Of a stretch of DNA of 64,000 nucleotides, positions 1 to 43,372 are shown piece by piece. Both the position numbers and the translations under genes were made by a program. A model generated the notes under the pieces. That model was not told the origin of the DNA. It searched no databases and worked only from the letters and a program-made list of their open reading frames with translations. Position 1 is the first letter of the stretch; every line of letters starts with the position of its first letter. The DNA comes from Lingula anatina (Eukaryota; Animalia; Brachiopoda). The stretch lies in the NCBI GenBank assembly GCA_051362555.1, contig CM120647.1, positions 17,212,651 through 17,276,650 on the forward strand, in the 5' to 3' direction.

Positions 1-477
1 CATCATAATCCGGGACAAAACAGGCTTCATCTAGTATGTCTAAATCCGTATCTGAAATAAACTTATACAATGGTTTATTTTCTTGAATGAACATACATGA
101 TAATGAGCTTTTCTTTCAAATGAATATTAAAGTAATATTACATTAATAGCATAGTATTACATTAACAACATAGTATTACAGCATGAACATAATATTACAT
201 TAATTACTAACATAGTATTACAGCATTGCCGCATTAACTATGTACAAATATTTACATAAACAAAGGTCATTCAAATAAAGAAAAACAAAACTTCAATTCC
301 AAATCAAACCAATTCAAAAACCAAATCTTCTGGTACAATTAAACACAAATGTCTATATTCTTTCTTTTCCCATTTGTAATATAACTCAGTTATATATATA
401 TATCAGTTGTTCTTTGTAATTCCACAATTTTTTCACAGCCATACTACACATTACAACTGACTCTTTCGGTTCATTTT

Positions 478-2049
478 CTAACCAACACCTTCTCTACTGA
501 AAGACTTTCCTAGGAATTCGCATTTTGTTTGGAAAAGAAAACACTTCTTAGGCTTTAACTTCAAATTGTAAGAACGCAATCTCTCCAAAACCTCTTTCAA
601 ATTCTTAAGATTATCTTCAAAATTCTTTCCTAACACAGCCATATCAATCAAACTCAAAAATTGATTTCCAGCCAGACAATCTAAACAATCACCAATGTTT
701 GGAATAGTATAAGAATCTTTGATAGTTTTCTTATTTAATTCCCTATAATCCACACACCATCTAACACTTCCATCTTTCTTTCTTATCAAAACTGGTGGGG
801 ATGCCCATTCAGAATTTGATGGCTGAATAACATCAGAAGCTAACAACTTTTCAAGCATCTTTCTCTCTTCTCCTTCCATTCCCAATGGAGTTCTACGCAA
901 TTTCTGTTTCACAGGAGCTGCACTACCAGTGTTAATAGTATGTTTAACACCTTTCATGCACCCTAAATCAAGATCATGCTTTGCAAATACATCTTCATAA
1001 TCTCTCAAAGTTTCACACAATACAACCATTCCATTTGAATCAAGCTCCTCACTTGATCTTTCAAATAAATCTTGCAAATGTTCAGGCAAATCTCTTTTCA
1101 AACTTCTCATCACTTCTTTATCCATATTTTCATCTATATTCAACTTCATTTCAGCTTTATTCACAGCAGACACCCTTGCTTTCTCATCTACATATTCTTT
1201 ACATCTCACTTCAGAAGCAACTGTCTCAACTTCCTTAATAACACCCAACACACTACCTGCTTTCAAAACAGCATTTCTTTCTCCATCATTCACTATCTCT
1301 ATAGGAACAACTTCATCACCTTTAACTAATGCACAAGATACCAACACTTGTCTATCAACACAAGGTTCTATCACATACTCTTTCTTTTTCTCTAACTCAT
1401 AATCTGCACAAACAGAAATTCTCATCACCGTCAATGGAGGAACTACTATTCTCTTTTTCGTTCTCACCATATTTTCACAAATTTCAACTTCTTTCTTCAT
1501 TTCATCAACACATTTCTCATCACTTTTAGCTTCTGTCTCATCATTCACTTTACTCAAATCAGAGTCACCTTCAACTTCTATGCTTCCCTGCACACATTTC
1601 TCTCCAATGATCAATGTTTGATCAACTAAATTCACCACACAATTTCTCTCCTTCAAAAACTTCAATCCCAACAACATATCAATTCCTTCTTGCAAATCTG
1701 CAACATACACATTTTCCTTATATTCTATCCCATCTATCTCAATACTCAAATTTTCTACTATATGACCCATCATAAATGCATTTTTTCCAGCAAGCATTAA
1801 TTTCAGAGTCTCACAAAATTCAGGCACACCCTGCAATTTACTATAAAATATTTTATTTACGATAGTAAATTGAGCTGCCGTATCCACAACTGCTAATGTT
1901 TTCACACCACCTACACTAACAGGAATCACAAAATTTTCTCCCACTAATTCTCCAACATTCATCATTTTCACATTTCCACTATCCATAATCCGACCTTCAA
2001 CATGAAGTAAGGGATCCGAAATCCGGTCGGTCAATTCGTCCCGTTCTAG
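478..2049 (-). CDS. pol: Gypsy Pol (-1 frame): intact aspartic protease, RT with catalytic core deleted, no RNase H or integrase in frame
   Basis: Protease: LAVVDTAAQFTIV and IDMLLGLKFL. RT N-part: WASPPVLIRKKDGSVRWCVDYRELNK. SLIDMA is joined directly to VLGKNFEDNL, so the PFGL and YxDD motifs are absent. Stop at 478 after FLGKSFSREGVG. Confidence 0.9.
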   Translation of the reverse strand, partial: LERDELTDRISDPLLHVEGRIMDSGNVKMMNVGELVGENFVIPVSVGGVKTLAVVDTAAQFTIVNKIFYSKLQGVPEFCETLKLMLAGKNAFMMGHIVENLSIEIDGIEYKENVYVADLQEGIDMLLGLKFLKERNCVVNLVDQTLIIGEKCVQGSIEVEGDSDLSKVNDETEAKSDEKCVDEMKKEVEICENMVRTKKRIVVPPLTVMRISVCADYELEKKKEYVIEPCVDRQVLVSCALVKGDEVVPIEIVNDGERNAVLKAGSVLGVIKEVETVASEVRCKEYVDEKARVSAVNKAEMKLNIDENMDKEVMRSLKRDLPEHLQDLFERSSEELDSNGMVVLCETLRDYEDVFAKHDLDLGCMKGVKHTINTGSAAPVKQKLRRTPLGMEGEERKMLEKLLASDVIQPSNSEWASPPVLIRKKDGSVRWCVDYRELNKKTIKDSYTIPNIGDCLDCLAGNQFLSLIDMAVLGKNFEDNLKNLKEVLERLRSYNLKLKPKKCFLFQTKCEFLGKSFSREGVG

Positions 2050-2055
2050 TTTACC
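1990..2055 (-). promoter_or_regulatory. Programmed -1 ribosomal frameshift signal (slippery heptamer plus putative pseudoknot)
   Basis: G GUA AAC (2055-2049) lies directly before the gag UAG; pol is in the -1 frame and open across the site. After a 6-nt spacer, GGGACGAA pairs with UUCG(GA)UCCC, and loop CCGACC pairs with downstream GGUCGG. Confidence 0.7.
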
Positions 2056-4091
2056 GAATTTCTTGCACCAGGAGGAGGATTCTTTGGCATTTCTCTATTT
2101 TGAGGGCAATTTGTTTGAATGTGACCTCTCTGTCCACATTTATGACAAATCAAAATAGAACTTGGGCTGGCATTTTTATTAACATTGGGATTAGGTGGAT
2201 GTTCTACAATTTCATTCTTACAATCCCTTTGAACATGACCTCTTTCTCCACATTTAAAACATTGTGGTGGACCCCCTCTACTTTGATTTACATTTCCATT
2301 CTGGGGCGACTTTACCATTCTACCAGAATTTCTCTGAGAATTCGACGGTGACACCCATGCGTCATTCATTCTTTTCATCTGATCACACATTGCAGACATG
2401 GTTCTTTGCATATTGTAGAGTAATTGATTTCCACTTCCATTCTCCACACTCTGATCAGACATTCCAACTTGTCTAATATGCACATTTCTTCCACCTGTAC
2501 CATACACAGCTTTGAAGTTATTGTTTGCAACTTTCACAAACTCTAAAGCTTCAAATAAATCTTTAGGCTCTTTATCCATAGCCAATTTTGCAGATTCTTT
2601 GTCACGACACCCTCTCAAAAATGAATCCACAGCTATTCCTTCACCACCTTCTGCATATCCCTCTCTAGATGCCATGAACACACGATGAGAAAAATCTTGC
2701 AAAGATTCGCTTTCACCCTGTCTCATTGATTGAAGTGCTCTACGTGCAGATGAAGCAGACTCTTTCATACTAAAACGTTTTGACATCACTTCTTTCAAAC
2801 GTTTATATTTGCAGTTTCCAAACTCCACCGCATACTCAAGAGCTCTGTCTTCCAAACATTCAATCATTCTGCTAGTTTTTCTTTTATCATTCCATCCGTA
2901 TCTTTCTGCCATTCCTTCAAACTTAAATACAAAAGCTTCCCAATTTTCTCTTCCATTCCCACTAAAACTAGGCATTTTATGAACAGGTCCTTTTTCTCTT
3001 TCAACTAAAGGAACTTTTTTCTGTTCAAATTCAGATTCACTTTCGCTTTCACTATCACTTTCACTCTCTTCTAGTTTCAGTATTGGTTTTTTCACAGGGG
3101 TTTCCAAACTTTTCTTTTTACTACTTCTAGGTGCAGGTGTGGGTCTACTTTTAATATTTCTAGGAGTCGGCCTTGGAATTTTTTCTAAATCATGTTGTAA
3201 ATGCATTCTCTCATACTGAGTTTGCAAATGATCATGACGTGCTGTCATTTCATCCAATTGCAATTTCAAATCCATTTTTTCAATTTCACACTTCTGCAAA
3301 CTTTCTACACGTTTTCTCAACAATTCGTTCTGTGTTTCAACCTGAGCATGTAACATCATTTCTTTTGCGGAATACTCTCTACACTCTTCTTCCATTTCCA
3401 TTTCTTTTTTCATCAACACTTGTTTAGTTTTTCCCAACTCACTCTGAATTTTCACATTTCTTTCTTTCAACATATCATTTTCATTTTTCAAATCACACTT
3501 CTCACTCTCTAAACTATACTTTTCACTTTTCAAAGCATATTTCTCTTTTTCTAATGCACTCTTTTCATTTTCCAACACAGATTTCTCATCTTCCAATGCA
3601 TTCCTCTCTTGTTTCAACTTTTTGTAATCAATTGCCATTTCTGAATTTTCAACTTCCAACTTTTTCACTTTAGCATCATTCATCTCCAATTCACTAGATA
3701 AAAATTCTATCTTTTCTCCCGCTTCTTCTACCTCATCTCGAAGATTTGATATCATTTCATTTTGTACCTTCACTCGCTCCATCAACTTTCTATACTTTTC
3801 TTCCCAATTCACACTCTCTTCCTTTTTCTCATCTCCAACTTTTGAACCTTCACCTTTTTCTTCCATTACACCCAGAATCACATTACCCTTCTTTTCCCAT
3901 TTCTGCCATTCTGCTACACTAATACCAGTAATTTCTTCCAAATCACTCAACAGCAATTTTCCTTTTTGATTTCTCAAAGACACCAATCTATGAGCTTTCA
4001 CCGGACCAATTCCTTTCAAATTTTTCAATTCTGTCTCAGACGCTGTCTGCACATTCAACACAACACTGCTTTCTACATTACCCGACGCCAT
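2046..4091 (-). CDS. gag: Gypsy Gag: N-terminal (HhH)2 module, long coiled coil, capsid domain, two CCHC zinc knuckles
   Basis: Uninterrupted ~681-aa ORF, ATG at 4091. HhH: LNVQTASETELKNLKGIGPVKAHRLV...DLEEITGIS. Capsid: MPSFSGNGRENWEAFVFKFE...MRQGESESLQDF. Knuckles: CFKCGERGHVQRDC and CHKCGQRGHIQTNC. Confidence 0.93.
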   Translation of the reverse strand: MASGNVESSVVLNVQTASETELKNLKGIGPVKAHRLVSLRNQKGKLLLSDLEEITGISVAEWQKWEKKGNVILGVMEEKGEGSKVGDEKKEESVNWEEKYRKLMERVKVQNEMISNLRDEVEEAGEKIEFLSSELEMNDAKVKKLEVENSEMAIDYKKLKQERNALEDEKSVLENEKSALEKEKYALKSEKYSLESEKCDLKNENDMLKERNVKIQSELGKTKQVLMKKEMEMEEECREYSAKEMMLHAQVETQNELLRKRVESLQKCEIEKMDLKLQLDEMTARHDHLQTQYERMHLQHDLEKIPRPTPRNIKSRPTPAPRSSKKKSLETPVKKPILKLEESESDSESESESEFEQKKVPLVEREKGPVHKMPSFSGNGRENWEAFVFKFEGMAERYGWNDKRKTSRMIECLEDRALEYAVEFGNCKYKRLKEVMSKRFSMKESASSARRALQSMRQGESESLQDFSHRVFMASREGYAEGGEGIAVDSFLRGCRDKESAKLAMDKEPKDLFEALEFVKVANNNFKAVYGTGGRNVHIRQVGMSDQSVENGSGNQLLYNMQRTMSAMCDQMKRMNDAWVSPSNSQRNSGRMVKSPQNGNVNQSRGGPPQCFKCGERGHVQRDCKNEIVEHPPNPNVNKNASPSSILICHKCGQRGHIQTNCPQNREMPKNPPPGARNSVN

Positions 4092-4540
4092 TTTCACTTC
4101 CAGTTTCCCACAACCTATTACACAATTTTATTGATAATAGCAATGCAGCTGTGCCACAAAAACTACACAATAAAATACTTTCACCACTACCACACTTTAC
4201 TGTTTGAAGAAAGTTTCAGCAAAAAGCCACTACTAAACTTCACAGTAAATACAAACAAATTTCTCACACTATTCAACCTACTCATATATACACCTATGAT
4301 GAAACACTTTCAACACAGACGAACAAGGTAGAATAGTACTCTATCAATATATGCTATTGCAATATTGATAAAAATATACAATAAACAATTCACACTCACT
4401 CCTTCATTCAGCAAGTCAGTGAAAAACACAAATTTGAAACCTTTATTTTAAATAAATGCTTTTCTTTGTAAATAAACTCACTAAATTATGTTCTGTATTC
4501 TAATTACAACATAAGGCTCTACACGCACGGGCCTGTAATT

Positions 4541-5045
4541 ACATGTGGTCTGTCCGACTACTACTCAGTACACGTGGTCTTTCTGACTACTACTCAGTAC
4601 ACGTGGTCCGCAATGTCTCCGCAGTTGTAGTATCACAACAGAAAATTAGTACAAAATATCTCTAAACTACTAAAATGAATTCTAAACTGAAAATATTTAC
4701 TGAATTGCCGCGAGTATTAAACAACAATGAAAATGAAATATCACTGCTATATATTCCGACTAGTTCGCGTCTTGCAACAAGTCCCGACTAACACGTGTCA
4801 CTATCTTTCCAACTCTCACTCAGTCATACACAAAGCTTTTCAAAAATTCCAATATCACTAATAACTACTAATTCTATCCTCTAACTACACAAGCTACACA
4901 AATTCTATCCCGTAAACTGACAACGTAAGCTACACAAATTGAATTCTGTCAATTTAACAACATATGCTACACAAATTGTATCCTTTCAATTAATAAGCAA
5001 CACAAACTCTATCCTGTCGTAAGCTACACAAACTCTATCCTGTCG
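4541..5045. repeat. Short tandem repeats in the retroelement 5' leader
   Basis: ~29-bp unit CACGTGGTCT..GACTACTACTCAGTA x2.3 (4541-4610). Several degenerate AAGCTACACAAA(T/C)TCTATCC units (4870-5045). Confidence 0.75.
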
Positions 5046-5054
5046 ACTGCGCCA
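5037..5054 (-). promoter_or_regulatory. Primer binding site, complementary to the 3' end of tRNA-Ser
   Basis: Minus strand TGGCGCAGTCGACAGGAT, 2 nt after the LTR end. Complementary to ...ATCCTGTCGACTGCG-CCA, resembling metazoan tRNA-Ser 3' ends (compare the TGGCGCAGTCGGTAGGAT PBS of Drosophila 17.6/297-type elements). Confidence 0.85.
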
Positions 5055-5056
5055 AT

Positions 5057-5422
5057 TGTTACGCCTTCGCGGCCGAGTGCCTTATGAAGGTACAAATAAC
5101 AATGTACTTACTGGTGTCTCAGAGTATAAGCACAGAGAGAGAGTCTCAAAGATCCGCAAAGAAGGACCAAAAGAACCAAGAGAGCTACAAAGTCAGCCGC
5201 AAAGAGAGCCGCAAAGAGGCCGATTTATTTCACGTTACACCTTATATACAAGTTCAGATAGTACACGTTTACCAATCAGAACCAACTATACAATGAACAG
5301 TTTTACCTTTAGGTTACCAATCACGGGAGAGATTCAAACTTGCACACCGGACAACACTTTACTTACAGAGACATCTACCGGTAGCAATGTAAAACAATCT
5401 CAACTAACACAACATCGTCACA
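5057..5422 (-). mobile_element. 5' LTR (366 bp) of Ty3/Gypsy retrotransposon
   Basis: Minus strand begins TGTGACG (5422) and ends CGTAACA (5057): TG..CA termini with a 7-bp inverted repeat (1 mismatch). Internal TATATAAG (5241-5248) is followed by AATAAA (5224-5229). A PBS follows 2 nt downstream. The partner 3' LTR is not in the window. Confidence 0.85.
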
Positions 5423-6629
5423 CTGCAACCTACCCGACGGGAGTTCGTGTCCCTGTCGGTACTTTTGAAGATTTTGAAATTGTCATTATTACAGATATCT
5501 GTTAATATATAAAACAGTCGTGGCTAATTGTTTTTGCAACGGAAAGCACAGTAGGAAGGTTTGTTGTTATTGTTAAAGTTATTATTACTGGGGACATAAA
5601 TTAGTATGCTAATCTCTTATCATGGTATAATGATTGATACGATGGGTATCAAATAGAGAGCGGCCTTCCAAATATCTTTGCTGAATGTTTATAACGTAGG
5701 TACTATTATGCGCAAAAATATTGATACATGACGCAAACGACATTTACTAATTTTGGTAATATCAATTTTAATTAAAATTAAATTTAATTGAAATTAAAAT
5801 TAAAATTTGTCTAAACGTGCATATTACCATTCACCTTGTTTAAAGGGTTCGCAACACTTTACATTCTAATACATTTTGCCAATTTTCATGTTTGCTAGTT
5901 TATTTTGATTTGAGAGAAAGCGAGAGAAGAACCTCTACTAGGGCCGCAAATTAATTATGAGTATTTTTCTTCAGTGCAAGAGACTGTGTAATGAAAAATC
6001 AATCTGTAACTCTGGTATAGGGTGGCCTTGTGTGTGTAATAATATACAAGTAGGGGCAGGGGTACAGTTTTATAGTACAAATAGTCATTTTATACATCTT
6101 ATTGATCTCATCGTCGGGTCATTGTTTACAATAGCGCTTTGTCGCTGTGCGTACCTTTTTGCATTTGAGTTAGACTCAGTCAGTAACAGCTGGTGATTTT
6201 GTCTTTTTTGCGTTTCATTGACAATATTTTGGCCACCTAAGTAGGGAAATGTGGCTCTTTGTTTTGAAATGACATTTCCATTGTTCCTTTAAACATGCAA
6301 AAGTCAACACACTTACGTCAACATACTTACTTTGTAATACCAACCCAGGGGAAGAAACAAAAGCCTCATAAGGTGTCGTCATTCACACTGTAAAAGGTGT
6401 TAATTGCATGCTTCTATTGTTTGCCCATGAATCATTATGACAAATTTGTAGGGTTGCCAGATCACTGGCGCTTCATTCAATTCTCTATATCTGCCCTGCA
6501 GCCTGGGATGAGTGATACTTGACTGACCTTTGTTTACATCTGGAGATTTTCTTTATAATTCGATCAGTGTGCATAAATTATATTTTCCATCAGGAAAAAT
6601 ACGTGATAATGTTACGATTCTTATTTTAC

Positions 6630-7685
6630 GGATACATAATTACAAAAATTAATTCCTGATTTAATACCCCCTATTTCAGCGCCTATTCCTGGCTGCGTTA
6701 ATTATGGGGGCTGGAAAGTAATCCGTTAGAACGCAGGAGTGATGATTGCTACTCTTACCAACGGTGCATCACCGATCAACTAATCTCAGCCACCTGAAGC
6801 AGAATCACCAACAAAAGACAAATTGGACTACGTCTGCCTTCTTGTTGAGACATCTTATGTAAAAAAGGCGATAACGGTCAAAACATACGTGCTTCGTAGT
6901 TTATTAAATGTTCATCGTATTTTTTCGTTCGTTATTCTTATGAGTTAAGCAGCTTCACCTCCGTGACACCCTTTTTATTTATTTAAACTATGTTAGATAA
7001 ACCATGGGTTTCACTCCAGATTTCAAGATCGAGCAGCTGATCATGAGGAGAGTGTAGCATGCTATAGTAAACTACCCCAAATATATATACAACACCTCCA
7101 GGGTTTCACGATCGAGCAAGTGATCATGAGGAGAGAGTGTAGCAGAGAACTTCATTAATGGTCGTCATAATTGGTGGTTGCCTTGGGAAAATGAGTTACA
7201 TGATTACATAATACAGATACATAATAACATAAGATTAATACTAAAATTTTCCCTGATACAAAAACCCCTATTTGAGCGCTTATTCCTGACTGCGTTAATT
7301 ACGGGTGATTAGAAAGTAATCTATGAGGACGCAGGAGCGATGATCGCTACTCTTACCAACGGTAAATCACCGATTTACTTGACTCCGCTACTTCGAGCAA
7401 AATCACACACCACCAAAAGACAAATTAGACCACGTTCGTCCTCTTATTAAAACAAAGAATGTAAAAATGTGATGTCGGTCAAAGAAGAGGCCTAGACTAC
7501 GTGCTTCATGGTTTATTAGATAGGCCTATTCATTGGATTTTTTTATTTCATTATTATAGCTTCACCTCGCGAGACCCTTTTTTATATATTTAAAACACAG
7601 CACCCCACTGGTTTCGCGATCATGAAGAAAGGGAGTGTAGCAAAGAACCTCATTAATGGTCGTAATAATAGGTGGTTGCATTGTA
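6630..7685. repeat. Old diverged tandem duplication, two ~550-600 bp units
   Basis: Collinear shared blocks in both units (~6630-7185 and ~7215-7685), e.g. CCCCTATTT.AGCGC.TATTCCTG.CTGCGTTAATT, GCTACTCTTACCAACGGT, AAAAGACAAATT and CATTAATGGTCGT.ATAAT.GGTGGTTGC. Confidence 0.8.
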
Positions 7686-8921
7686 GGCCTAACCTTGTTC
7701 ATTTTAGTCGACAGACTAAGCTAGAAGAAAGAAAAGATCATTATCGCCTCTCTTTACTAAGGAACAATAAGGATGGCTAGTGGCAGCATTTATAAGTTCT
7801 TTTATTTAGAAACTTTCCGATCCTTTGTTTGGGACTGCGTCCGAGAAACGGCGATAACGACAGAGACGTCCTCGAACATTTTGGACTCAGTGCAAATAAA
7901 AAAAAATCCGTTAAGAAGTAGCCTTTAAATGTCCTGGCAAATAATTTTGCGATGGCTCAGAGAGTTCTAGAATGAATGACAAGCAACGACATTAGGGTTA
8001 ATAATAGACTAAAAACTATCAGAGTGTAGGCCTGTCTTACTTCATTTCTAAGGCCATCTTGTGATACGAGTCATGCTACACTACAAAAGAGGGGGTAGCA
8101 GTGGATGATTTAATACAGGGATACCATCGATAGTATATCAATAGAAAATCGCAATCCTCAAATGTTTTTTAATTCATTAAATATAAACGGTCTTTTCTCG
8201 TACAATGGGTCTGGTATAGTTGTATTGGCCTATCAGTTGGAAACACGTGGTTCGTCTACAATTGCAAATGGCGGAGGTGCCGTGGTAGTTATTGTCGTAA
8301 AATTAGCTGGATACGGTGCACGTGAGAAAATTATTCATTAAATTTAGTTTTCGAGCGTCAGCTTAATCTGGTAAAATGCGAGACGAAAAAAATGATAGAT
8401 AGAGCCTTATGACCCACTGTAGAATGATGCCGAATAATACATCAACGACGTAGTTAATCGGCAGATAAACGTGTTTCCATTCTCGGCTGACTGAGGAAAG
8501 GTTTGAGAGAGCATTTAAAGAAGAGGCGGTCGAACCAATAGTGAGTAGGAAGTGTGCTGCAATCAAGACGAACAATACCGATCATAAGTGGACAGCTAAT
8601 AACCCCTAATTAACCCCGGGTTACGCGCTGCTGTGTTGACTCCTTGCTGGGAAGGGGTAGCGGCCTCCTACTGCTGTGCGTAATCAAACATTGTCTTCTA
8701 ACATGCGGCTACACGACGGTTGCATTGTATTAATAAAGTAATACCTATTCATAAGGAAGGGGGCGGATGGTAATCTTACGAGAATTAAATCAGTTATCGA
8801 TCATACGCGTACCAATAGTCGTGTTTTTTTTTAGCTATACGGTAGATGAGATGCACTACTTTCCAACCCCGCTTAGGATCATTGCTATCACATCGCGCAC
8901 CAGGCAAAATCGGTGTGGTGG

Positions 8922-9032
8922 CTGATACTCTGTAATGCGATCTGACACACACCTTGAAAACGGGTAGTGTGGTCTGATAAACCGGTTTATTCTGGATCTG
9001 TAGGTGCCGAGTCTGGTAGTTGGGTAGGCCTG
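8922..9032. mobile_element. Solo arm of the CAGGCCTACCCAACT MITE family (full copy at 60342-60972)
   Basis: Near-identical to 60862-60972: GATCTGACACACACCTTGAAAACGGGTAGTGTGGTC...CCGAGTCTGGTAGTT.GGTAGGCCTG. Confidence 0.85.
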
Positions 9033-9125
9033 CTTATGAAAATCCCAATAGATTGTGTCCTGTAGGACGTCATATCAAAACTTCACCCCCATGAATTGAA
9101 CATGTATGTCTCTTCCTTTTTGTAG

Positions 9126-10987
9126 TGCCTGGGGCTTCTGGACCGGACTATAAACTGCGGTATGGCGACAGTGTAAATGATCTTCTTTACTACGATGCCA
9201 CGCAGGACTCTGCAGCTGCTAAATCGGTAAGTCTGTAACAAGCCAGTTATGACTTATGTAGATACAAAAAAGGATTAATAACATATCTCTGTGACAATTG
9301 AAACCCCGTACTGTTATGAAATTTCAAAGACATTTCCGCCTGTATGTTTATTCGGGCCTATTATAAGATTCTATTACTATTATTCCAAACCGATACTTTA
9401 TTGCAAAATAATTGCTGAGATCGTGGTAAACCCCATTTGATGAAAGTGACTTGGCCCGAATTGATTTTTTTCTAAAAAACTGAAATAACTTGAAATAATC
9501 GCTGCAATCGAGGAAGTCTTCATTTTTTTTCTTTTTTAATGAAGAAAGTGACATGGTCCAAGTTGTATTTTATCCAAAGAAACTGAAATATCAAGTAAAT
9601 GTACAACACTATCGATTTTTTTTTTCATTCAAAACTACGGAGCTTTGTTAGTATCATATTAACTTTTTTTAATTTTCATTTAAGTTTTATTTTATGGAAT
9701 TTTCACCGCAGTGAAAAATAATTTACACCGCGGTGGGAATTAATTTTCACCGCGGTGAAAATAATTTTCACCGCGGTGAAAATTCCATAAAATAAAACTT
9801 AAATGAAAATTAATTTACACCGCGGTATTTTCCACCGCGGTGATAATTCCTGGCCATCTCGGCCCGGGTGATGCATACATGTAGGTTGTACGAATCCAAA
9901 ATTTACCAGATGTCTGGAAGGTAAGTTGATAAAGATACTCACATGTACATGCACGCGGTTAAACCAGTTTATGTGCCAATCATCCCAGGAATGTGGAGGA
10001 AGCGGGCAGTATTCGAATAGATTAAAAATCACCGAAATGCTGCAATGTTGTACGTCGCTTTTCCCTTTATAATAACTTGCGTATTATTGGGAATATTGGT
10101 AAAAAGAAACCTCTCCGAAGAAACCGAGATTACATATTTTAAGATAAGATCTATGGGCAAACACATCACACTAATATTTAAAAATACATTGTCCAAAAAT
10201 AACGTTAGGTATTTAGTAATAACAATGGGATTCCCTTTGCATAAAACTGCAAGCGGGACTTTAATTATATAGGTGGTAAATATAGATGGGAAACCTAAGT
10301 TAACGGCAGTGGCCCCACGAACAGATCCACCAACCTTGTGTGTATGTAACAATAGCATGCACCGTGACGGCATCTGGCAAGTGTAAGGTTCTCATTACCT
10401 ATTCATCACCCGGGCCGAGATGGCCAGGAATTACCACCGCGGTGAAAATAATTTTCACCGCGGTGAAAATTCCATAAAATAAAACTTAAATGAAAATAGA
10501 AAAAAGTTAATATGATACTAACAAAGCTCCCTACAAAACGCTGTTTGGTATGGCAATACCAGGGCTTAATACTAGACTATATGTGTGTAGGTTAACAAAA
10601 TATGAGAACGATTTGGAGATACCCCACGTTGTTAACGCCTGAAGCCAGTAAACACGCAAGGGTTAACCATTATGTACAAGTGGTTATTGTCCAAATGTAA
10701 TATTTCCCTTCTGTACAAAACTGAGTTATGTTCAGTTTATGTGCTAATTAGTGTGTATAAATTATGTTACAATATATTTCAGTTTCCGGGAACGACGGAG
10801 ACTTATGTTCCGAAGACTTCTCTCCTGAAGTCTCCCAAGGTCGCCAAGGTCGTTCAAATTGAACTGGACAGACCTGCTCCTTTCCGATTAGAAATTCAAG
10901 GAGTAGCCGCCGCTTCGTTTTCACGTAAGTTGCTTCCACATTGTGGATCTTGTTTCTCCTTGCAATTAGTTGCTGTTGATTTTGAGA

Positions 10988-11063
<76 letters not shown>

Positions 11064-11889
11064 ACTTTTATTTTCAAAATTCACCTGATAATATTTGTAT
11101 CTCGGTGCACAATGCTTTGAACCTTTCTTGGCAAATAAAATATCACATAAGAGATGCACCTATGTTCTTTATATTTACCAGAAAGGAGAGGTTATATCGG
11201 CTGTTACGTGGAGTCCGGTGACCCTGCGGCTCTAGACTTGCCATATTACGCTGGGAGCACCAGTAACGTTACAGAATGTATGGGATTGTGTGACCTGGCC
11301 CAGTATAGATATGCTGGGATATCAGAAGGTGTGTAATATACTGTGATGCGGTTGTGTCCATGCACCCTTGTGTCATAGATGCCATGTTGATGCATATTGA
11401 TTTATTCCTTTTTATGCGTTTATAAACCGGTGTGATGATATGCTTATGCCTTCTGGTATTCTGTGCTGCAGGCGCCGGTTAGGTAACTAACTGAATAGAA
11501 TAGCACAAAATTGATTGTTGGAAACTGTGAACATTTCCTCCTCTTTTTTATATTTTAAATACCGCGTTACGAGCTTAGCGTGTTTCTTTGAATGTTCTCA
11601 ATTGTATATACGCTGATCCCCTTGCCCGTGGCTGTGATGTAACAGTGCATTTTCAGTAACCGATGGGTTATGTGAAACGTATATAAATATTAACGTATAA
11701 ATGAAACTCAAAGTTTTGACATACCATGAGATTTCCACGTGGTTTTGATAGGAGTAAACTGTTCCTGTGGTGACATCATCGGGAAATACGGCCAGGCTCG
11801 GTCACATGAGTGTTCCATCACGTGTGCAGACACCCCAGAATACTCCTGTGGGGGGCGTGGTAGAAATACAGTGTTCCAACTGTGGGGTA

Positions 11890-11932
<43 letters not shown>

Positions 11933-12027
11933 GATGGGAAATCTTCCTTCGACAATTTTTTATTTATTATAAACCTGAATAATTTATGTATTTTTTTTTT
12001 ATTTTGCTTATTTATTTATTTATTTAT

Positions 12028-12060
<33 letters not shown>

Positions 12061-15000
12061 AATTGCAGTCGTGTGTATATATAAATATACCATATGTGAC
12101 TGACTAGTAATTTTTCAGTTTATTGTGGAAAGCTTCTTTTCGATTAATTCATCTTATTGATCTTGTAGGTTAAAGTCTTAATTTATGTATTTTGTCACTT
12201 ATATTAAAGAATGCTTTGGAAAACCAACTACATAAAAACTCGTTACATACAATGGTTACAACCATAGATAGGATAAGCATATTGTGTTGGAATGTGTCAC
12301 TGCTGTCACAACTACCACAACAATTACACTTCCTTTCAGACTCTAAATGTCCCCCCACTCCCACAGTGCAGCACGCTACAGCAAACAGTACGGAGCTCGG
12401 TCACATGACAGTGGTGGGATTCACGTGTCACCCTGGCTACGAGATCCCCCAAGGTCTAAACAGTTCGGCCATGGTCATCTTGTGCAGACAGACGTGGTGG
12501 GAAGGGAATTTGCCCTCTGCGTGTACACGTACGTAGTAAAATCTAAGCTTATGTTGATCAGGTTATCATTGTAAAACTCATTTTGTTTGAAAGGCAAAAT
12601 AATGAACTCTCTCTCTTTTGCCTTTGAACATCACAACTGAGTAAATCAGAATTCACATTTTTATTATTTTATTTCATGTCAACGTGGTCATAGTATAGCC
12701 TTTTTTTTTTCTTTTCTGTATTGTATGTTTCTGCGTTTTTACCCCCGCACACCCAAATATGCACACGCACGACGCTCACACGTACATCATTCATTTTACG
12801 CATGCACGTGCACGTGAAATTTTGGACGCGCATCTTTCTCAGAATCGTCATAAAAATTAACCCATTAATTTGACCCACCTTGACTTCACAGCCATTCACT
12901 GCAACAGCACTGTGCCTCAGCTGCCTCATTCCACCGTAAACTGGACCACCACCACCTATCTCAGCGAGGCGACGTACACGTGTGACACCGGCTACGAATA
13001 TCTAGGTGGCAGCACTGTTCGCACAGTCACGTGCCAGACCAATGGAGAGTGGGGCCCTCTGGTGAACTGTGACCGTAAGTCACGTGGATGGTAGAAGAAC
13101 GAAACCCTTTGTGTTTTATATGGCGTATTTGGAAAGAATTGATGTGAATACAATATCGAAATTATACAGTGTATTCAAACTTACAAAACCTTTCAATGAA
13201 TGTGAAATTAATTTTAATTATTCAACTTAAAGATTAAAAAGGGAGTATAAGATTATATCATAGCATCACTAATAGATAGCCTAAGCCTATGAAAATGTGT
13301 GTGTAATCTTTGAAAGCAGTTGGCACTTATATATATATATATATATATATATATACTACAGGTACATTTTCTTATATATACACTACATGTACTAATACAT
13401 ATACTGTATGTCGATCGTGTCCATGCTTCTAGCCGCTGAGTGCCCAAGCTCCACTTCGTTTACCAACAGCTACAAGGTGGAAAGCGGCACCACGTACAAC
13501 AGCACTGTGCTATATACGTGTAAACAGGGTTATATCCTCCCTGGAAGAATCATGCAGCAGTCGGCCACGTGTCGGTCTGACAGGACGTGGTCTGGCTCAC
13601 AGCGGGATTGCACAGGTAAATTAAATGTAATTAAATGTATTGAGAGCTCATACAACAGAGATAGATTTAAAGACGCCATGCCCATACGTAGGTCGATCAA
13701 ACTCCGAGGGGTTTCTCGCTTAATTAGTTTCAGCAGCTTAAGCAGCTCTGATGTCTGGCACGCCTACTGAAGATGTTAGGGGGTAATTAACTATCGTTAA
13801 GCAGCTTCAGTAGGTGTGCCAGACATCTAAGCAATTTAAGCTGAAAGAAATTAGGGGAGATACCCCTCGGAGATGGATCGAGCTTATAAGATCATTCTAA
13901 GTATGGCAAGAGGTGAAGGTGGTTCATCGATGATTTGGTACCCTGGCACCAACGCGGTTTGCAAATTGTGTGAATTTGGATTGATAATTCTTTGTTTATA
14001 TGCGTATCATTCCTGAGTGTGCATACTGTACGCGAGTGTGGTTAGGAAAACGTCTTTTCATATGGACTTCTTGTGTTTTCAATCCAGCTGACAACACTTA
14101 CGTTGGCTGTTTCAATAATTTCGGAACCAATTCTCTGGACGCCCTGATAACACCAGTAACTAACACGCCTGCAGTGGCAACCAATTACGTCGATAGATGT
14201 CGCCTGCACTGTCTGGACAACAGTTTTAAATACGCTGGTAAGTTTTAAAACCGTTACCTTATCAAATGATAATGTACACTTTATAAAAGCAGTTGATAGA
14301 TGTTATCATTTCATAGACAAAAAATTAGCGTAGATAGATAGATACCATAGGAATGATAATAAAAAAACTTTTCATAATTACACGACGAAGGTCGAATAAT
14401 GATAATTATGTTTTTTTGGGGGGGTGATGAGGGTCCTAAGCATTTAGGATACAACACGTGCACGTTTGACTGTGTCCTACAAACATAATTATAATTTTGA
14501 AAAATGCCATTAAAAGCAACTCGATACTCTGTAATTAATCAAAATCCCCTCACTTCTAAGAAGATCGAATGCAATTTTCTCCCAAAAATTCATGTATAAA
14601 CTGCTTAATCTCTGTAAAAAAATAATGCAGGTCATGTATAAACTGCATGCTTATAACATTTGTAAAATGTTAATACAGGTCTAGTTGGTGGCGACTCGTG
14701 TAGATGCGACAATGTGTATAACCCGTACCAGGGCCAGAATACAGACAGTCTGTGTGACACACATTGTTCTGGAGGGGACTCGGGGTTCTGGTGTGGAGGG
14801 GCAGGCACTGGGAAAATTATCATCCACAAAACTGGTAACGTATTGTTCCGTGTGTTTATATATAATTAGTGCCTGTATGTTCCAGAGTAAATGATAGTAT
14901 TTTTTATACCATAGCAGTTCATACCTCGCGTTGTATCAATTTTAAACAGTCGCCATTGTTTCAATGTGATATCGTGCATGACAGAATGTATGCAATACTT

Positions 15001-23406: not shown

Positions 23407-26400
23407 TGTCTAACTGTGCAGGTAAAACTGCATGTTTTTTAAAACACACGGTACAGTTCAAAGGCTTTTTCATTCATTTGATCCCCAACCCCTTATTTAC
23501 ACCTTCATTCAATGTATTAGGTCAACTGTCCTCGAATTTTCACTTTGGTGTATTTCAGATTGCTCCGACCCTGGTAATATCACCAATACCAACCGTTCTC
23601 CGGCCTACCAGAGTGCCGGGTTCTATGAGGGGGACACAGTCACGTACACGTGTGACCAGTGTTCATTCCTGGAGGGCGAGACATCCAAATCCTTCAACAG
23701 AACCTGCTCCAATAATGCCTGGAATAACGAGCGAAACTGTTCTCGTAAGTTTACTGCATGTGTGGATGGAAATATGTTTTTTTAGTCAACGTGTGCTGAA
23801 GTGATGTGCCAGGAATGGTAGTTTTGGAATGGATGTGGTCCACTTCCTAACGTTAAATGCAAATCTGTTCATTTCCTTATTGTACGTTTGTTCACCTTTT
23901 TATTTATTTATTTATCTATCTTGACAGGCTACAGCTGCAGTTCACCTGGTAACGTCACCAATGCGGTTCGTTCCGGTACCGGTGAACTGTGCGGGGACAG
24001 CCGCCAGTACCAGTGTTATCCGGGCTTCAAGATCTGGTCAGAGGGACGCTGGTCACACACCCACACAAGCACCTGTCAGGCCGACGGCCAGTGGTCAAAC
24101 CCGGCCACAGAGTGTGTAGGTGAGCAAGGACAGAGGCTTGTGCTTGGTTCACAAAACGTTTATGATAGATAGGGAATGTGTTCGGCCCGGTGTTTTAACC
24201 CACGTGCGAAATACTAGTCCGCCGAGTTCTTTTCATGACGAGTTTAAAACCCGAGACATAAAGTTGTGTCGGTGTGACGAAACTTAAGGTCCGTGTAACA
24301 GAGAGTCCGCCCTCCATTTAATTAGAGGTTAGGGTAAGGCTGACGAAAATAGGTCAAAATCTAGAACGAGACTTACCTGTTTGAATTCATGGGAACCACG
24401 GAAACCCTCTATAATGGGGACTCTCTGTCACGTCACACCGGCACATTCTGACTGGCGGTGGTATCGCCTTTCACAAGTTCACTTCCTTCCGTTTAGTTAA
24501 TAATTTTCCGTGTCGCACGTCGTGTGACTCTCTGATATGCAAATACTTTGCTAGCCTGACGATGACAGTTATCATTATTAATTGGTAAGAGGAACAATTG
24601 TTGACATTTTTATTGGACTTACAAGTCTTATGAGTGAAAATACATGTTACAGGTTAACCTAGTACGTTACTTAGTTGAAAATATTTTGCTAAAAACTATC
24701 AAGACAGCAGTAAAAATTATTTACAAATTATTAAAACTCACAACATTTAAAGCGAAGCATAACACCATTTAAGTAGGCTGTTTAAAAATTCTATTACTTT
24801 TTCATGTTCAGTTCCATCATCAAAACTGTTCCTACTAATACTGATCTCCAAATGTGCGACACCATTTCTAGCACGTCACAAACTTTATAATTACAAATGT
24901 CGTGACCTCTCTACAAGTGACACAAATAAAAAATGAAATCACTTGTGTCGCATTAAACGAAAAAATAATAAAATATGTGACTTTGTTTCTAAAAATCTAG
25001 TCCACTGACAAACTGGCAAAACTTTTTTCTTAACTAAAGTTGATGCCTTTTTCCACACCTGTTTTATAGCGTTCTGCTAAGACTACGGCACTGTCACTTT
25101 ACCCTTAGGGGTCATCCATTTTTTATCATCATTTTCACAAATCTGTTGAGAGTAGATTTTTCCCAGACACCCCCCCCCCCCTAGGGCATACAAGATGAAA
25201 AGCTAAATATGACGACCTTTGACAGCAATGTTGACTAGCGTTTTCGCTATTTTTCAAAAACCTACATCCCCCCACCCTCCGGCGTAAGGTTTGTACACTT
25301 TGAAAATGATGATAAAAATGGATGGCCCATAAAAGATGTAATTTCCATCTGCAATTACAAGACTTGGCAAAAACAATATTCTAGTACAACAAAGTTAGGC
25401 TCACATCTGGGTCGTTATAGAACTAGATGACTTCGTAACGTAGAGAGTGGACGCGCTTCGTTCGCTTAAACTGTGTCCAACTTTCGCAGCACAACCAGTC
25501 TGCGTTTCAGAGTTCCAACGACGATAATTAAAACACGATTTAAAAATGCTCACCAACTCGTCCCTAAAAATTCGAGCCGACGCAACGAAAAGAAAAAAGT
25601 TGGTGTTGTGATTCAGCAAACTGATGAGGAACAGTATTTCCCGCCCGAGACTGGTGCGTTCCACGGGTCTCCCACGCCGTATAATAAAACCCCTGGAGAG
25701 CTGCCAGTAGAATTCAAAGCCGACGAACGGCCATGTGAGCAGGAGGAAGGCGACCAGTGTTGTTAATAGTAGAGTGTTTGTTTTATTGTACGTCGAACCA
25801 CTTCTACCAGTCTGCTGCCGTCCTCCAGAAAGTCGTTGTCTTACAAAATGGTTCCTTTTCAGTTTACATACGATGGCGAATGTCGTAGCACCGACAGCTA
25901 CTGAGATAATTAACCCTCCAAATATATCTGTATATAACACGGCGTGCCGTATATTAAGCGCTGTTTCTAGAGATGAGTAGCACATTGCCAGAGGAGGGGA
26001 ACTGAGGCCCAAAGCCAGCAGAATGAGGGCAAAACAGGTCATCAAAGCCTTTCGTCTCGTGCACAGACTTGCCGCTCTAAACGGATGATAAACTATAATA
26101 ACCCTCTCCACCGTTAACGCCAATACGTACAACTTTGAGAGGAAAAGAAAAGTGGTCTGCAAAGACTTTCCTACTGATTTGGCTGTACATGGCGTTTTTG
26201 TTGTTTTATCAAACGTGATGCACTCGTACGAAAAATACAAAAGACGCAGCTGGTCCGCGCCGGCAAGGAACAAAATGTAAACAAAGCTGGATTTGCGTCT
26301 AAGGCTCGGACGTCGAAGAACCACAAGGAAGGTGAGGAAGTTACTAATCAGACCGATGGCAGTCAGATTATACAAAGTGGTACACCAGCATGTCCACAGA

Positions 26401-28128
26401 GGAAGCCAGCACCTTTGTTCCGATGAGAGCTCGGGATAGTCGTAGCTGCGGGAAGTACCCTGTGTCATATTTTTATCCGCACCTTGTCCATGCATCTCCG
26501 TACAGTGAGTCTATCTCATTTACCGTCAGAAATGTTGCCTGTAAGTAAACTCTCGTCCTTCTTGGTGGTCGACGTTACTATATACTAGTAGGTTCAGGAA
26601 AGATCACAACTACTGGTACCTGTCCTGTTCAGCGCATTGTTCTAAGTGGCAAATGTCACGATCAATAAGTGATATTATACGGGTCGCCGAGCTGTACGTG
26701 AAATATAGCAGTTGTATTGTGGAGACTTAGATAATTCACGAGTAATGTTCGTGTGCAGCTCAGAAGCGTATCCTCTGATTGGCTACTACACCGCCCTAGC
26801 GACATTTTGCTTATACATGTTGAAGGCTTACTCTCTACTTGAGTGCACTTGGTGAAATTTATTCCGTGCAAAAATTTTTTTTTTTTTTTTTTTTGGGGGG
26901 GGGCAGTAGAAAAGTTGGAAGTATTAGCCAGAGAATTAAAATTTCTGTAATATCAATCTGTGGTAATATCAAGTCCTAGTGGAGGGTATTTAGGACACCT
27001 AGTGGTCACTTTCCTCGTCTTGGGCATCGGATGAGGAGGGTCGACACAAATCTTCTACATTTTTTTTGCACGCAATCTCAATTGCAAGATAGAATTCTGG
27101 CACATGCAAAGTATCACTTAATGGGTAATAATTTGTTCACCAAGTGGCGCACCTGACGTACTTTAATTTCAGAGAAGAGGCACTTACTTTTTTTTCAGAG
27201 GGGTGGCAATGTAAGAAACTTACCAGAAAAGATCACTTCTCCCCCTCCCCATTTTGTCATTAAAATAGTGATAATAGTGGCGGATTAAGTGGGAGGGGTC
27301 GGGGGATTCGGTCGAACACCCCGCTCCCAAACTAAGTTTTCAAAGTATAATGTGCATGATTTTAGAGAAATGAGCCCCTCCACTCGATCAAAGTCGGGAT
27401 TGCCTCTTTCTCAATTTTTCTCTCTTTTTGTTACTCTGTGCGCCTCATTCAGTGGATCAGGTACTGGTCGTAGGCATTTCATCCTATTGCTAACTCATAA
27501 ACAAAAGTTAACTCCCGTAGGGGAGTACTCCCTAACCTTTAATATTTATAGACTTAAACTTGCAGCTTGCACGACGTGGCATCTCGTGAGACAAAGGTCA
27601 GTTATCTAACTAACCTGCCTCCAGGGAAGTTAATTAGTAGTGAATCATAAGCTATTGCCCCTTATCTAAGATCGTCTCAGCTATTAATCAAATTGGTTCC
27701 CGACTTTCATAAGCACCTCGGTCCATGTAGCTACAAAAGGTTTATTTCTGACGCTCTTATTTGCTTAAAAATTCAGTGAAACATGTGACCACTTGAAAAA
27801 TTGCTAAAGGTGGACTTTTTTAACGAGCAGTGTACCCGTCTTGCGACGTCAATTTACCGCTACACCGCGTTTTTTTTCCTCGCAACGCTATTGGCAACTT
27901 AGGATTTTTTTCAGTGTCAACGATCACTGCAGATTAGCCGATTACATAGTTAAACTACCTATTATAGCGCACAATCCTGGCGTAGAGCATTTTTACGGAT
28001 GCTCTTATAACGTCACAGGACTCATTTTGGATATCTCCTCTTAATTTCCGTGGTTTTCCGATTGTCAACTTTATTTGATAAGACCAAGCGTGCGTTCAAA
28101 TTACAAGCGGTTTTTTTTAATTATTATC

Positions 28129-34383: not shown

Positions 34384-35760
34384 TTTTATCTACCTGGGCA
34401 AACACCATGCCATAAAAAGATGGTTCCTTTCAAATAAATAATAATAAATAGCATTATCCTGTACACCATACAGTCTCCATTTGTCCTCACAGGTCTATCC
34501 AGCCCAGAATATGCCCAGTCCTGCTACGAGCTGGAGATGGCCGGACTGCCCAGTGGAGAATACATCATCAAACCTTCTGGTGGCTCACCATCTACCGTCA
34601 ACTGCACTATGGAGAGCGGTAAGAGCGAGCGGAGAGATGTGCATATATAAATGAGTCAAATTCTGGAGTAAGAGTGAGTGAGTGGTAAGATTCAACGACA
34701 ATTCGACCAAGGCATTCACTCGTCAAAAGAGTCTTCAGTTTAAATATAATGTGATCTATTGAAGGCCTTTTGTTTTCTTTTTCTTTGTGCCATTGGAAAC
34801 AGGGGGTGGTTGCATGGTTGTTGTGTTTGTTAATTCTTTCATACATTGGATATTAATTGATACATGTATAAGAAAAAATGCAGTTTGTAGCTTCAAAATG
34901 ACAATTTATGAGGTAATCAGAGATTTTTCCGGCACTTATTTTAAGTCAGATATGTATATACAGTGCTTTTCATTGCTGATCTTTTTTTTCTATGACGTCA
35001 CAGACGGGCTGTGTTCAGTGGGCTGGATTGGGCACAACGGGCACTGTTACCTCTTCTCAGCCGGATTTAACTCTTTCACCAATGTGCGCGCGATCTGCAA
35101 GGCACGTGACGCAACCATGGTAACCTTGGATGACGTCACGGAGGGCACATTTCTCTACAACGTGAGGGCAAATGTGCCCGCTCTTTATGACAATTCAGCA
35201 TACTGGCATGTTGGGGGATACGCTACAGCAGGCTACCATCACTATCAGTGGAATGACGGGAGGTTGATGAAATATTCCACGTGGATGTCTGGTCAGCCGA
35301 ATCTTCATACTCAGCTCTGTTTAGCGGCGGATATGCAAAACCCTCCACAACTCTTAGATTTACGTTGTACAGACAACCGACATTACGTATGCGAGAAATA
35401 TGGAGGTAGGTTCAGCTCTAGGCATATTATGACAAGCTTAGGTGCCAAATGTTCTATTTTGATAGGATGTGTATGATTTTCTTTATTCATCTCTAATGTC
35501 AACATATTGTGTGCAGTATAAAACCCATTGTCACCTTTGCATAGCACAACGTAATTTTAATAAACACAGAAATTTATGTGGCACAAAGATGACTCTTTTT
35601 GACTTCAAATCGAAGATTTAAAAAGCAAGTTTTAGATAAAACGCTTTTATATGTAAGGATGACTGTTAATTTCCCTATCTTCAGTAGCCTTCTCCTGAGG
35701 TAAAGAAACAGCATGCAACTAAGCTTTCATAACCTCAAACCTGTGTGTGTGTGTGTGTGG

Positions 35761-41000: not shown

Positions 41001-43289
41001 TGTCCCACGGTAAACAGTTGTACAGTCCTGACACGGGGGAGGACGCCGCCATGTTGAGAAACGCCATCTCCAAGATTACTGAGTTGGCCGAAGTGAATAA
41101 CTGGTAAGTCTTCTTGTTTTGTTAAATCTGTTTTAATAGCCAAACTCAACAACTCTCTCGGCATGCCTAGTCGTACTTAATTATACTATTTCTGTATAAT
41201 GTTCTAAAAGCAAAACAGGTGGATTAAAATTTTATTAGCGTTTCGTACCTATATCTGTTTTAACTTATTTTATTATGATTAAGACTTAAATCCTGAAATC
41301 ATTTCTGGTTAACCGCCATGTCTGTCATATAATTTTAAAGATCCATCTACTCTTTTTAAAAGCATGCTGTCACTGGTGTTAAAATGAAACATTTCTGTAA
41401 GGCACATAACAGCATTGATTTAACAGCTCATGGCGGTATCCATTCTAAAAAGTATTAAAATATATATTGCCTCAGGTTTATCGGTCTATATGATTTGGAC
41501 CTCGATCACCATTACACAACCACAGACGGGTCGGCGTTGTTCTACTACAACTGGGCGGCCTCGGAGCCTCGCTCTAACTACAAGCGCTGTGTACGGTGGG
41601 GGGACACTGGCACTTGGTTTAGCGAAGACTGCGCCACTTCTCTGCCATTTATATGCGAGACAAATTCGGGTACGTCTTCAAAAGTCAATGCGAATTTCTC
41701 AAATTATCTGACACTGTTAATTTTCCGACAAAGAATTGCCCGGTAGTGTAAGCTAGTAGGTAACAATATACATGTACATGACAGTGGCTGGAGATGCTGA
41801 GCAATTTTTAATCCATTTTTGTCCATCCCGACACTGCGATCCAACCCATTTGTACGCAAAACTGAACAAGGGGTCTGTACCATGGAAATTAACCAACGCC
41901 CATAAAATGTAATGCAGTGTGTAATGTATTCTCATAATTTTATTCGTCAAGAATAAAGATGGCACTCTTCTCTCACGGAAACATTATAAGCAATGAGCGG
42001 CACTGTACGTGAATAATTTATCAGACGTTTCAAATAAAAGACGTAACTTCCTCACTTCAATTCTACATCTTCCATTGAAAAAATGACAGATGTTCCGCTC
42101 TTATATTTTAAAGGGTACCAAGGTTGCTATAACGTTCCTTCATCAACATCCGGGTACCGGAACAAGGTGGTCTATCCGCGCATGACATTAATGACGTGTA
42201 GAAAGTACTGCCGCGGAGTAGAGAGGCCTCAGCTGTATGCCGGAGTGTCTGGACAAACCTGTTACTGTATGAGTTCACTGACGACCTCAAAAGTCGCCGA
42301 CTCAGCTTGCGATGCGGTCTGTCCTGGCAATCCGGTACAGACTTGTGGCGACAACGGAGTGATGACGGTGCTGGTGACAGGTATAGTTGATATGTACATG
42401 TTTGTTGCCTTTTGTATTTATGGATTCATGTGAATGCGTGTTTCTGTGTTTTTCGTGCGGTTGTGTAGTATTAAGATATACCTAGTACACTAATGTGCAG
42501 ACTTCGTTAACTTTTGGGCCATTTCATTCTCACGAGTAAATACCCTTATATTTTTCTTATAATCAAAATATATGCTCAGAAGATAAGATGATGTCTACCA
42601 CTATATGATAAGATAATGTTCCCTATTTCAGTCATGTATAATATACGGGAGGCATCCTGCGAGGACCTATACAACCAAGGTGTCGTAATGCCCGGATGGT
42701 ACCGCATATTTCCGCGAGGACACGGGAGCATGGCGCGAGTCTATTGTCATGGTCAAGGTAACTCGATATTTTCACGAATTATCAAGCAGTAGGTAGGATT
42801 TCATCCACAAAATATGCCTTGACACAAAACTGGATTGTAAATGTCAGGTCAATTCACAACAACAAAAACTAGACCATCATGTCTTTTTCACCATTTTACC
42901 TCCCCTAAAAGATATATTAGGGCTCATAGCGTTAAGTTTAGTTATTTTTCATTCTTTCAAAGCTAGGAGATGCCAAAAGTATAACAAACTTGTACTCACT
43001 TGTGACTACTTATCATGATTTTTGATTCGCCTAGACTCGTTATAATCTGAAAAGCGCAGCGCCAGAAAATAACAAATACAAGTGATGTAGTTATCAGGGC
43101 ATCTGTTGTGCGTAAAAAGGGTATACGTTATTAATAAAAAAGTTAATATTTCCATTTCAGAAAGAGCAAATGATTTTCTTCTACCAAGCGTACAGGATAG
43201 TGACATCGCTGTCTCGTCATCTGAAGGAACAACAGGATCTGGTGCTATATCGTATGACGGCAGTTATGGAAGGCAAGCACCGTGCTGAT

Positions 43290-43372
<83 letters not shown>

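Follow-up and report, generated by a model that had tools for sequence, protein, structure and literature searches.

Does the Gag protein of a retrotransposon begin with a DNA-binding domain of the type known from the bacterial competence protein ComEA, and what could such a domain do on a capsid? This question is raised by a 64,000-nt stretch of the Lingula anatina genome (contig CM120647.1; henceforth the window), for which an initial annotation had reported a ComEA/HHH_3-like helix-hairpin-helix (HhH) pattern at the start of a Gypsy Gag. The respective features are listed in Table 1.

Table 1. Features located in the window (1-based window positions; aa numbers refer to Gag).
Feature	Window position	Strand	Basis
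gag ORF, 681 aa, intact	2046..4091	minus	ATG at 4091, stop at 2046
N-terminal ComEA-type HhH domain, aa 10-74	3870..4064	minus	Pfam; PDB sequence and fold matches; family profile
First hairpin, intact: G27-I28-G29, K32, R40	3972..4013	minus	Alignment to 8dfk; conservation
Second hairpin, degenerate: G56-I57-S58, no lysine at 60, family-specific W62	3906..3926	minus	Alignment counts
Long helix, predicted coiled-coil stalk, aa 96-273	3273..3806	minus	AF2
Disordered linker with basic and acidic/serine tracts, aa 274-367	2991..3272	minus	pLDDT <50
Two-lobed capsid domain, aa about 369-530	2502..2987	minus	Foldseek; Pfam Retrotrans_gag (aa 428-471), E 0.0012
Two CCHC zinc knuckles, aa 610-626 and 649-662	2106..2264	minus	Pfam zf-CCHC, E 5.6e-11
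Broken pol, -1 frame	478..2094	minus	ORF; Pfam
Aspartyl protease in broken pol	about 1657-1926	minus	Pfam
RT fragment in broken pol, core missing near 637	within 478..2094	minus	Pfam; PDB match
Primer-binding site, 18 nt beginning TGG, 2 nt after LTR	5037..5054	minus	Sequence
5' LTR, 366 bp, TGT...ACA ends	5057..5422	minus	Sequence; read/contig divergence
Rhodopsin-family GPCR, host gene/exon	25401-26510	minus	Pfam
C-type lectin domain, host gene/exon	34763-35476	plus	Pfam
Farnesoic-acid methyltransferase-like domain, host gene/exon	43776-44498	plus	Pfam

The Gag of this Ty3/Gypsy copy opens with a ComEA/HHH_3-type HhH domain. The peptide that had been singled out covers aa 12-58 of the 681-aa minus-strand ORF. 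Pfam's HHH_3 model matches Gag aa 9-59 (E 1.6e-6, 28.6 bits, gathering cut-off 27) and reaches an E-value of 4.9e-8 when only the first 84 aa of Gag are scanned. For these 84 aa, the best PDB sequence matches are ComEA structures (8dfk, 1.3e-5; 8dss, 4.7e-5; Bacillus, Geobacillus), while EEPD1 (9yi2, 0.0066) and KIF22 (2edu, 0.015) come next. Since neither of the latter outscored bacterial ComEA, an origin of the domain from EEPD1 or KIF22 is not supported. AF2 predicts four helices in the head from the single sequence (mean pLDDT 76) and reaches a pLDDT of 91-95 over aa 11-70 when provided with a 29-sequence alignment. The helices (aa 19-23, 30-43, 48-55, 59-67) correspond to the four-helix HhH pair fold. 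Foldseek's top fold match for this model is again ComEA 8dss (probability 1.00, E only 0.065), which is also ranked first by VIA (Z 7.4, rmsd 4.0, 72 aligned residues), i.e., the fold-match scores of the modelled head are modest. Homodimer prediction of the HhH, run without an alignment, gave no verdict (score 0.00) and speaks neither for nor against a dimer.

Behind the head, the AF2 model of the full Gag shows one unbroken helix of 178 residues, which translates into a predicted stalk length of ~27 nm (0.15 nm per residue). The closest Foldseek matches of the capsid are PNMA2 (8uyo, 6e-5), Arc (7r24, 5e-4) and Ty3 (6r24, 0.04).

These results agree with the initial annotation in that both the profile and the AlphaFold/Foldseek comparison against HHH_3, ComEA and EEPD1, which had been proposed as a check, recover ComEA as the best match, and in that an ordinary capsid and two zinc knuckles follow the stalk. 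Other details have to be adjusted. The domain does lie at 3912..4060 but extends beyond the lower bound to about 3870, and the coiled coil given as about 200 aa is a long helix of 178 aa instead. The wording '(HhH)2 dsDNA-binding module' fits the first hairpin, which keeps the ComEA contact residues, and overstates the second one, which is degenerate and reads G-I-S, not GIG.

Next, we consider the element around gag. It has an LTR with TG...CA ends, an adjacent primer site, a two-lobed capsid and a CCHC nucleocapsid. Its pol order is protease (PR) then RT within the window, and the full order PR-RT-RH-IN is found in an HhH-bearing mussel relative (P0193) that is 33% identical over PR-RT. Judged by LTR, capsid, RT and the pol order of its relatives, the element is a member of Ty3/Gypsy (Metaviridae). 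The LTR limits are marked by reads and contigs of other loci, whose similarity ends near 5055 and shortly after 5411. A single LTR lies within the window, the 3' LTR being beyond it. The primer-binding site presumably matches the 3' end of tRNA-Ser. Just after it, the leader (4882-5053) holds four imperfect 42-nt repeats (family D14), the last of which overlaps the primer site.

The best PDB match of the RT fragment is Ty3 RT (E 6e-22). From position 637 on, other copies continue with different sequence (loose ends), and neither RNase H nor integrase was found in the window when those of a relative were used as queries. With pol broken in this way (RT core, RNase H and integrase missing), the window copy is non-autonomous. 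The spacer between protease and RT (about 1230-1470, minus strand) is conserved with a mussel relative; it resembles a dUTPase-like fold, but Pfam reports no dUTPase match in the spacer. At the 3' end of gag (2046-2055, minus strand), an AAC codon directly precedes the stop, in the stretch that gag shares with the pol ORF of the -1 frame, and the Gags of two relatives (P0002, P0096) likewise have a terminal Asn. Possibly, this AAC is a -1 frameshift site.

The family is multi-copy, i.e., 735 contigs of one DNA run fall on window positions 1-5600, with a summed contig word depth of 5,800-14,100 on the LTR vs. 900-7,500 in its interior. In runs X12 and X13, gag is covered by RNA reads of the family, most of which have their first mate on the plus strand; over the HhH, X13 provides about 12 such reads vs. 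3. As first mate on plus means sense in most stranded libraries, these gag reads are likely sense. Runs X15 and X18 contribute few reads (31 and 112) and no clear strand bias. Most RNA reads are 90-99% alike to the window element and thus stem from the family, not necessarily from the window copy. On the LTR (5050-5423), RNA is far deeper than in the interior, and in run X12 its first mates fall on the other strand (44.8 vs. 0.5); this depth and strand suggest that LTR copies are transcribed inside other RNAs. Elsewhere in the window, two MITE-like elements of about 900 bp (9636-10533 and 42945-43840) carry ~90-nt inverted repeats that are 93-94% complementary.

Is the HhH a family trait? Relatives were picked with a capsid-only query (aa 365-545), i.e., without selecting for the HhH. 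A word search with the capsid gave one relative (P0002), the start of which aligns as HhH-like, while a whole-Gag word search gave no match among 7,991 candidates, probably because it was swamped by coiled-coil words. The capsid HMMER search reported 1,453 clusters at E-values up to 0.001. We examined 151 relatives, covering the best 150 of these 1,453 clusters, and scored HhH presence by a profile that was started from the HhH of the window and then iterated. Within this set, 73/151 relatives carry the domain upstream of the capsid, so that the search for further HhH-Gag copies suggested initially was productive. The fraction rises with upstream length, from 72/97 for at least 150 residues via 51/58 (at least 300) to 36/37 (at least 400). 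With the window included, the HhH starts within the first 15 residues in 70/74 domains, and its distance to the capsid ranges from 63 to 803 aa (median 306). Reversed sequences gave 0 matches to the HhH profile, and Pfam HHH_3, as an independent check, recognized 35/65 scanned proteins (65 of the 74 that bear an HhH, the other 9 being excluded by a size limit). The 70 full-length domains share a mean pairwise identity of 26%.

This leaves 25/97 relatives with at least 150 upstream residues but no HhH. On a 98-tip capsid tree they appear as scattered single tips (22 changes vs. a shuffled mean of 22.3), and since they do not cluster, HhH presence does not serve to delimit a sub-clade among the top 150. 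Pfam shows no other N-terminal domain replacing the HhH in any of them (0 of 25), and in two the sequence sets in only within the last helix of the domain. Truncated gene calls probably explain the HhH-negative relatives best, and some may be true losses.

Named hosts of the relatives are Mytilus, Saccostrea, Crassostrea and Lingula, the last including an L. anatina gene model (P0214) with 96% identity over the HhH query; among viral contigs, no relatives were found. In mussel gene models, HhH and capsid are followed by protease, RT, RNase H and integrase, as in Gypsy. A metagenome scan based on the RT fragment provided 29 loci, most of them partial or distant and only one (L001) clearly with a whole gag. 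The HhH was seen in 0/29 and a weak capsid match in 8/29 of them (E 7e-6 to 6e-17). As these more distant, mostly partial loci are without HhH, the lineage has a boundary. One of them (L008) encodes a chromodomain-bearing integrase, and L008-L010 show long overlapping ORFs in alternative and antisense frames.

The public labels of HhH-Gags are diverse ('ComEA', 'interaptin-like', 'CAST/ERC2', 'DNA ligase 1-like'). Accessory domains on Gag are a known theme, and the stalk region seems to accept extra domains. Two relatives carry a Macro domain between HhH and capsid (P0096, aa 376-495, E 9e-26; P0083, aa 296-405, E 5e-9), another one has a RanBP-type zinc ribbon (P0142, aa 743-771), and one member of alignment A3 shows a ubiquitin match.

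Next, we compared residue conservation between the Gag domains (70 full-length ones, leaving out 4 partial of 74) and cellular ComEA-like domains (33 segments, reduced to 29 by dropping 4 partial overlaps). Within and after the first hairpin, G29 (58/70), Lys/Arg at position 32 (52/70), A33 (60/70) and R40 (60/70) are widely kept, while G27 is found in only 36/70 Gag domains. In the alignment to 8dfk, K32 corresponds to K164 of B. subtilis ComEA, since the lysine spacing 0, +29, +33, +35 reproduces residues 164, 193, 197 and 199. According to the available text of PMC9747964, K164A lowers transformation in B. subtilis to 0.5% and K199 is likewise essential. In V. cholerae, where K32 matches K63 and R40 matches R71, excerpts of PMC3879209 name K63 as the main DNA contact and describe R71 as thought to be structural. 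By analogy, the part of R40 may be limited to stabilizing the fold. The K164/K63 position is occupied by Lys/Arg in 52/70 Gag domains vs. 11/29 cellular ones.

The second hairpin differs. A canonical (HhH)2 has a second GhG followed by Lys, whereas the window reads G-I-S. At position 58, i.e., the third place of this hairpin, the Gag domains show P (34/70) or S (15/70) vs. G in 19/29 cellular domains, and neither Gly at 58 nor Lys at 60 is among the four commonest residues of the 70 Gag domains. The K199-equivalent position is hydrophobic in the Gag family. W62 (57/70) and G69 (50/70) are Gag-specific, without ComEA counterpart, and their conservation hints at another role. The mean net charge is -0.9 for Gag HhH domains vs. 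+1.6 for the cellular segments.

Relatives are 27% identical to the window Gag in the HhH, 36% in the capsid and 8% in stalk and linker. A crude heptad score exceeds all 20 shuffles in 56/73 family linkers. Variants in other copies or individuals (13) comprise 7 synonymous vs. 3 non-synonymous changes within aa 10-74 (p 0.04 against a transition-only expectation, a weak signal from a small sample). From these comparisons, the family appears to retain one hairpin that looks functional, carried by a stalk whose length varies.

What could this head do? The reading we favour, tentatively and at somewhat less than an even chance, places the HhH outside the capsid on the predicted stalk, where it would bind dsDNA weakly and non-specifically, such that the copies of a particle together tether it to chromatin prior to integration. 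This tether would act by direct contact to the DNA backbone, whereas MLV p12 and foamy virus Gag act via nucleosomes. It comprises four steps, given here in order of falling support, i.e., outward display, DNA binding, avidity and chromatin as the target.

First, and best supported, the head would be displayed outward, by analogy with PNMA2, in which the residues ahead of the capsid domain form spikes on the outer surface (bioRxiv 2023.02.09.527862, accessible part), and with Ty3, whose capsid N-terminal arm runs outward (PMC6525542, accessible part). Because pre-capsid residues are outside in both, the HhH likely faces the cell and not the packaged genome, and such an orientation would favour multivalent chromatin tethering over holding cDNA inside. 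Second, DNA would be bound via hairpin 1 and K32, for which the retention of Lys/Arg 32, G29 and R40 argues at the sequence level. One hairpin should bind DNA weakly; for EEPD1, the available portion of PMC12988330 reports no stable DNA binding by the isolated (HhH)2 fragment and better binding with more copies. Third, stalk and capsid lattice would supply avidity, i.e., a lattice with coiled-coil stalks would offer the copy number from which an EEPD1-type HhH gains. Fourth, and least supported, the DNA bound would be host chromatin, met at nuclear envelope opening or after import. As to precedents, p12 of MLV and a site in foamy virus Gag tether the integration complex to chromatin, as given in the accessible text of PMC6021111. 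We also count in favour of a Gag tether that Pfam shows no Chromo match in the integrases of three HhH-bearing mussel models (P0193, P0195, P0253), which are incomplete and from one genus. Against the tether stand the second hairpin, which has lost its second glycine and the K193-equivalent lysine and is hydrophobic at the K199 equivalent, the negative mean charge, the poor retention of G27, an R40 that may be purely structural, the modest fold-match scores, and W62 and G69, which ComEA does not share.

The residues that argue for DNA contact would equally fit, together with the N-terminal position, a late-stage role instead of integration targeting. That is, the HhH would bring unassembled Gag to nuclear chromatin, where it captures the element's own nascent RNA or aids its export. 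For retroviruses, the presence of Gag in the nucleus and its capture of RNA have been described, and the linker of the window copy contains basic tracts. Still, we consider this unlikely, as a stalk of such predicted length suits display on a shell better than a soluble adaptor.

The features that stand against the tether, i.e., the degenerate second hairpin, near-neutral charge and the conserved W62 and G69, would be expected if a half-dead HhH served protein contacts, either by capping or oligomerising the stalk or by recruiting or decoying host repair factors. (HhH)2 domains make protein contacts in XPF-ERCC1. The Macro domain in the same region of two relatives would agree with such a role, as would the (HhH)2-mediated dimers known from the available portion of PMC12988330. 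This explanation, too, appears improbable to us, since a pure scaffold has no obvious need for the Lys/Arg that the Gag domains keep at the K164/K63 position more often than cellular ones do.

The CCHC knuckles of Gag are C-terminal and inward-facing and have a nucleic-acid role. They already provide what an HhH would add if it retained or chaperoned cDNA or RNA of the element within the particle, and pre-capsid sequence lies outside the shell in PNMA2 and Ty3, the closest solved capsids. The retention of cDNA via Gag, as put forward in the initial annotation, is therefore disfavoured and in our view quite unlikely, even if the domain is of dsDNA-binding type and a protease-released fragment could end up anywhere. 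Very improbable is the capture of foreign DNA by the particle in the manner of ComEA in competence, also raised initially. Nothing beyond the resemblance to ComEA speaks for it, inspection of the Gag sequence reveals no evident hydrophobic leader, signal peptide or membrane anchor (the HhH already starts at residue 10), and EEPD1, KIF22, Tex and PolC contain HHH_3-type domains as well, such that uptake cannot be read from the fold. An accidental capture or an inert relic in the window copy, which the broken pol and the 25/97 HhH-less relatives might indicate, has hardly any probability left, being largely refuted by the family-wide presence of the domain and its residue conservation over 70 divergent domains, and by HhH-less proteins that are scattered single tips, two of which start inside the last helix as truncated gene calls would.

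Returning to the chromatin tether, it is possible, though we regard it as doubtful, that the window represents an old, widespread and unnamed marine-invertebrate Ty3/Gypsy lineage with DNA-gripping HhH heads on stalked capsids. Here, the element would be fixed to chromosomes via its capsid, by DNA-backbone contact, instead of via integrase or an adaptor of the host, and the Macro domain of some members could bias it to ADP-ribosylated chromatin. Little is settled about the way in which Gypsy elements other than chromoviruses get to host chromatin, and with a domain that is small, soluble and conserved and whose contact residue is mapped, a route via Gag can be tested directly. Should the tether prove real, a capsid with a DNA-binding head would also be of interest for understanding Arc/PNMA-type capsids.

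Independent of its role, the HhH marks out a large lineage of at least 73 clusters at 50% identity, and a protein labelled 'ComEA' in an animal genome or a marine metagenome can be the Gag of a retrotransposon. Public annotation had already labelled single members as ComEA-like or HhH-containing. In line with the initial view of a little-described lineage, we found no paper describing an HhH in Gag in the literature searched, i.e., outside Repbase, Dfam, GyDB and subscription journals. The term 'helix-hairpin-helix' in the accessible part of PMC10309623 refers to a helical part of the Cer1 CERV, a different protein. A mollusc survey (PMC6238403) defines Gypsy clades (Mag A/B/C, CsRN1, Cigr-1, MolGy1-16) by an RT/RNase H tree and does not discuss Gag domains in its available sections. 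The HhH-Gag lineage may thus already bear a clade name, with the domain unnoticed.

Finally, we relate the Gag HhH to known systems. With ComEA (HHH_3 PF12836; 8dss, 8dfk, 2duy) it shares the four-helix HhH pair without connector helix, the N-terminal 'hNhNTA' strand, the GhG of the first hairpin, and the K164/K63 and R71 positions. It differs from ComEA by its degenerate second hairpin, the conserved Trp and a G-x-h-x-h tail. ComEA is periplasmic or membrane-anchored and the Gag HhH is N-terminal on Gag, which shows neither the signal peptide or membrane anchor nor the uptake role of a competence protein. A tree separates the 70 Gag domains from the 33 cellular segments, which cluster together, and singles out no donor. 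EEPD1 and KIF22 provide eukaryotic HHH_3-type HhH domains with weak sequence matches to that of Gag; theirs are joined to a nuclease-fold or motor domain, the Gag HhH to stalk and capsid. MLV p12 and the foamy virus Gag site resemble the proposed tether as Gag-encoded parts beside the capsid that link to chromatin (PMC6021111, accessible text). They serve as a functional model only, for which we claim no homology, since they are short nucleosome-docking peptides whereas the window Gag has a folded domain predicted to sit on the DNA backbone. With other Ty3/Gypsy elements (capsid kin Ty3, PNMA2, Arc, PEG10), the window lineage shares LTR, primer site, two-lobed capsid, CCHC knuckles and the order gag then pol, and it is set apart from them by an HhH head on a long stalk.
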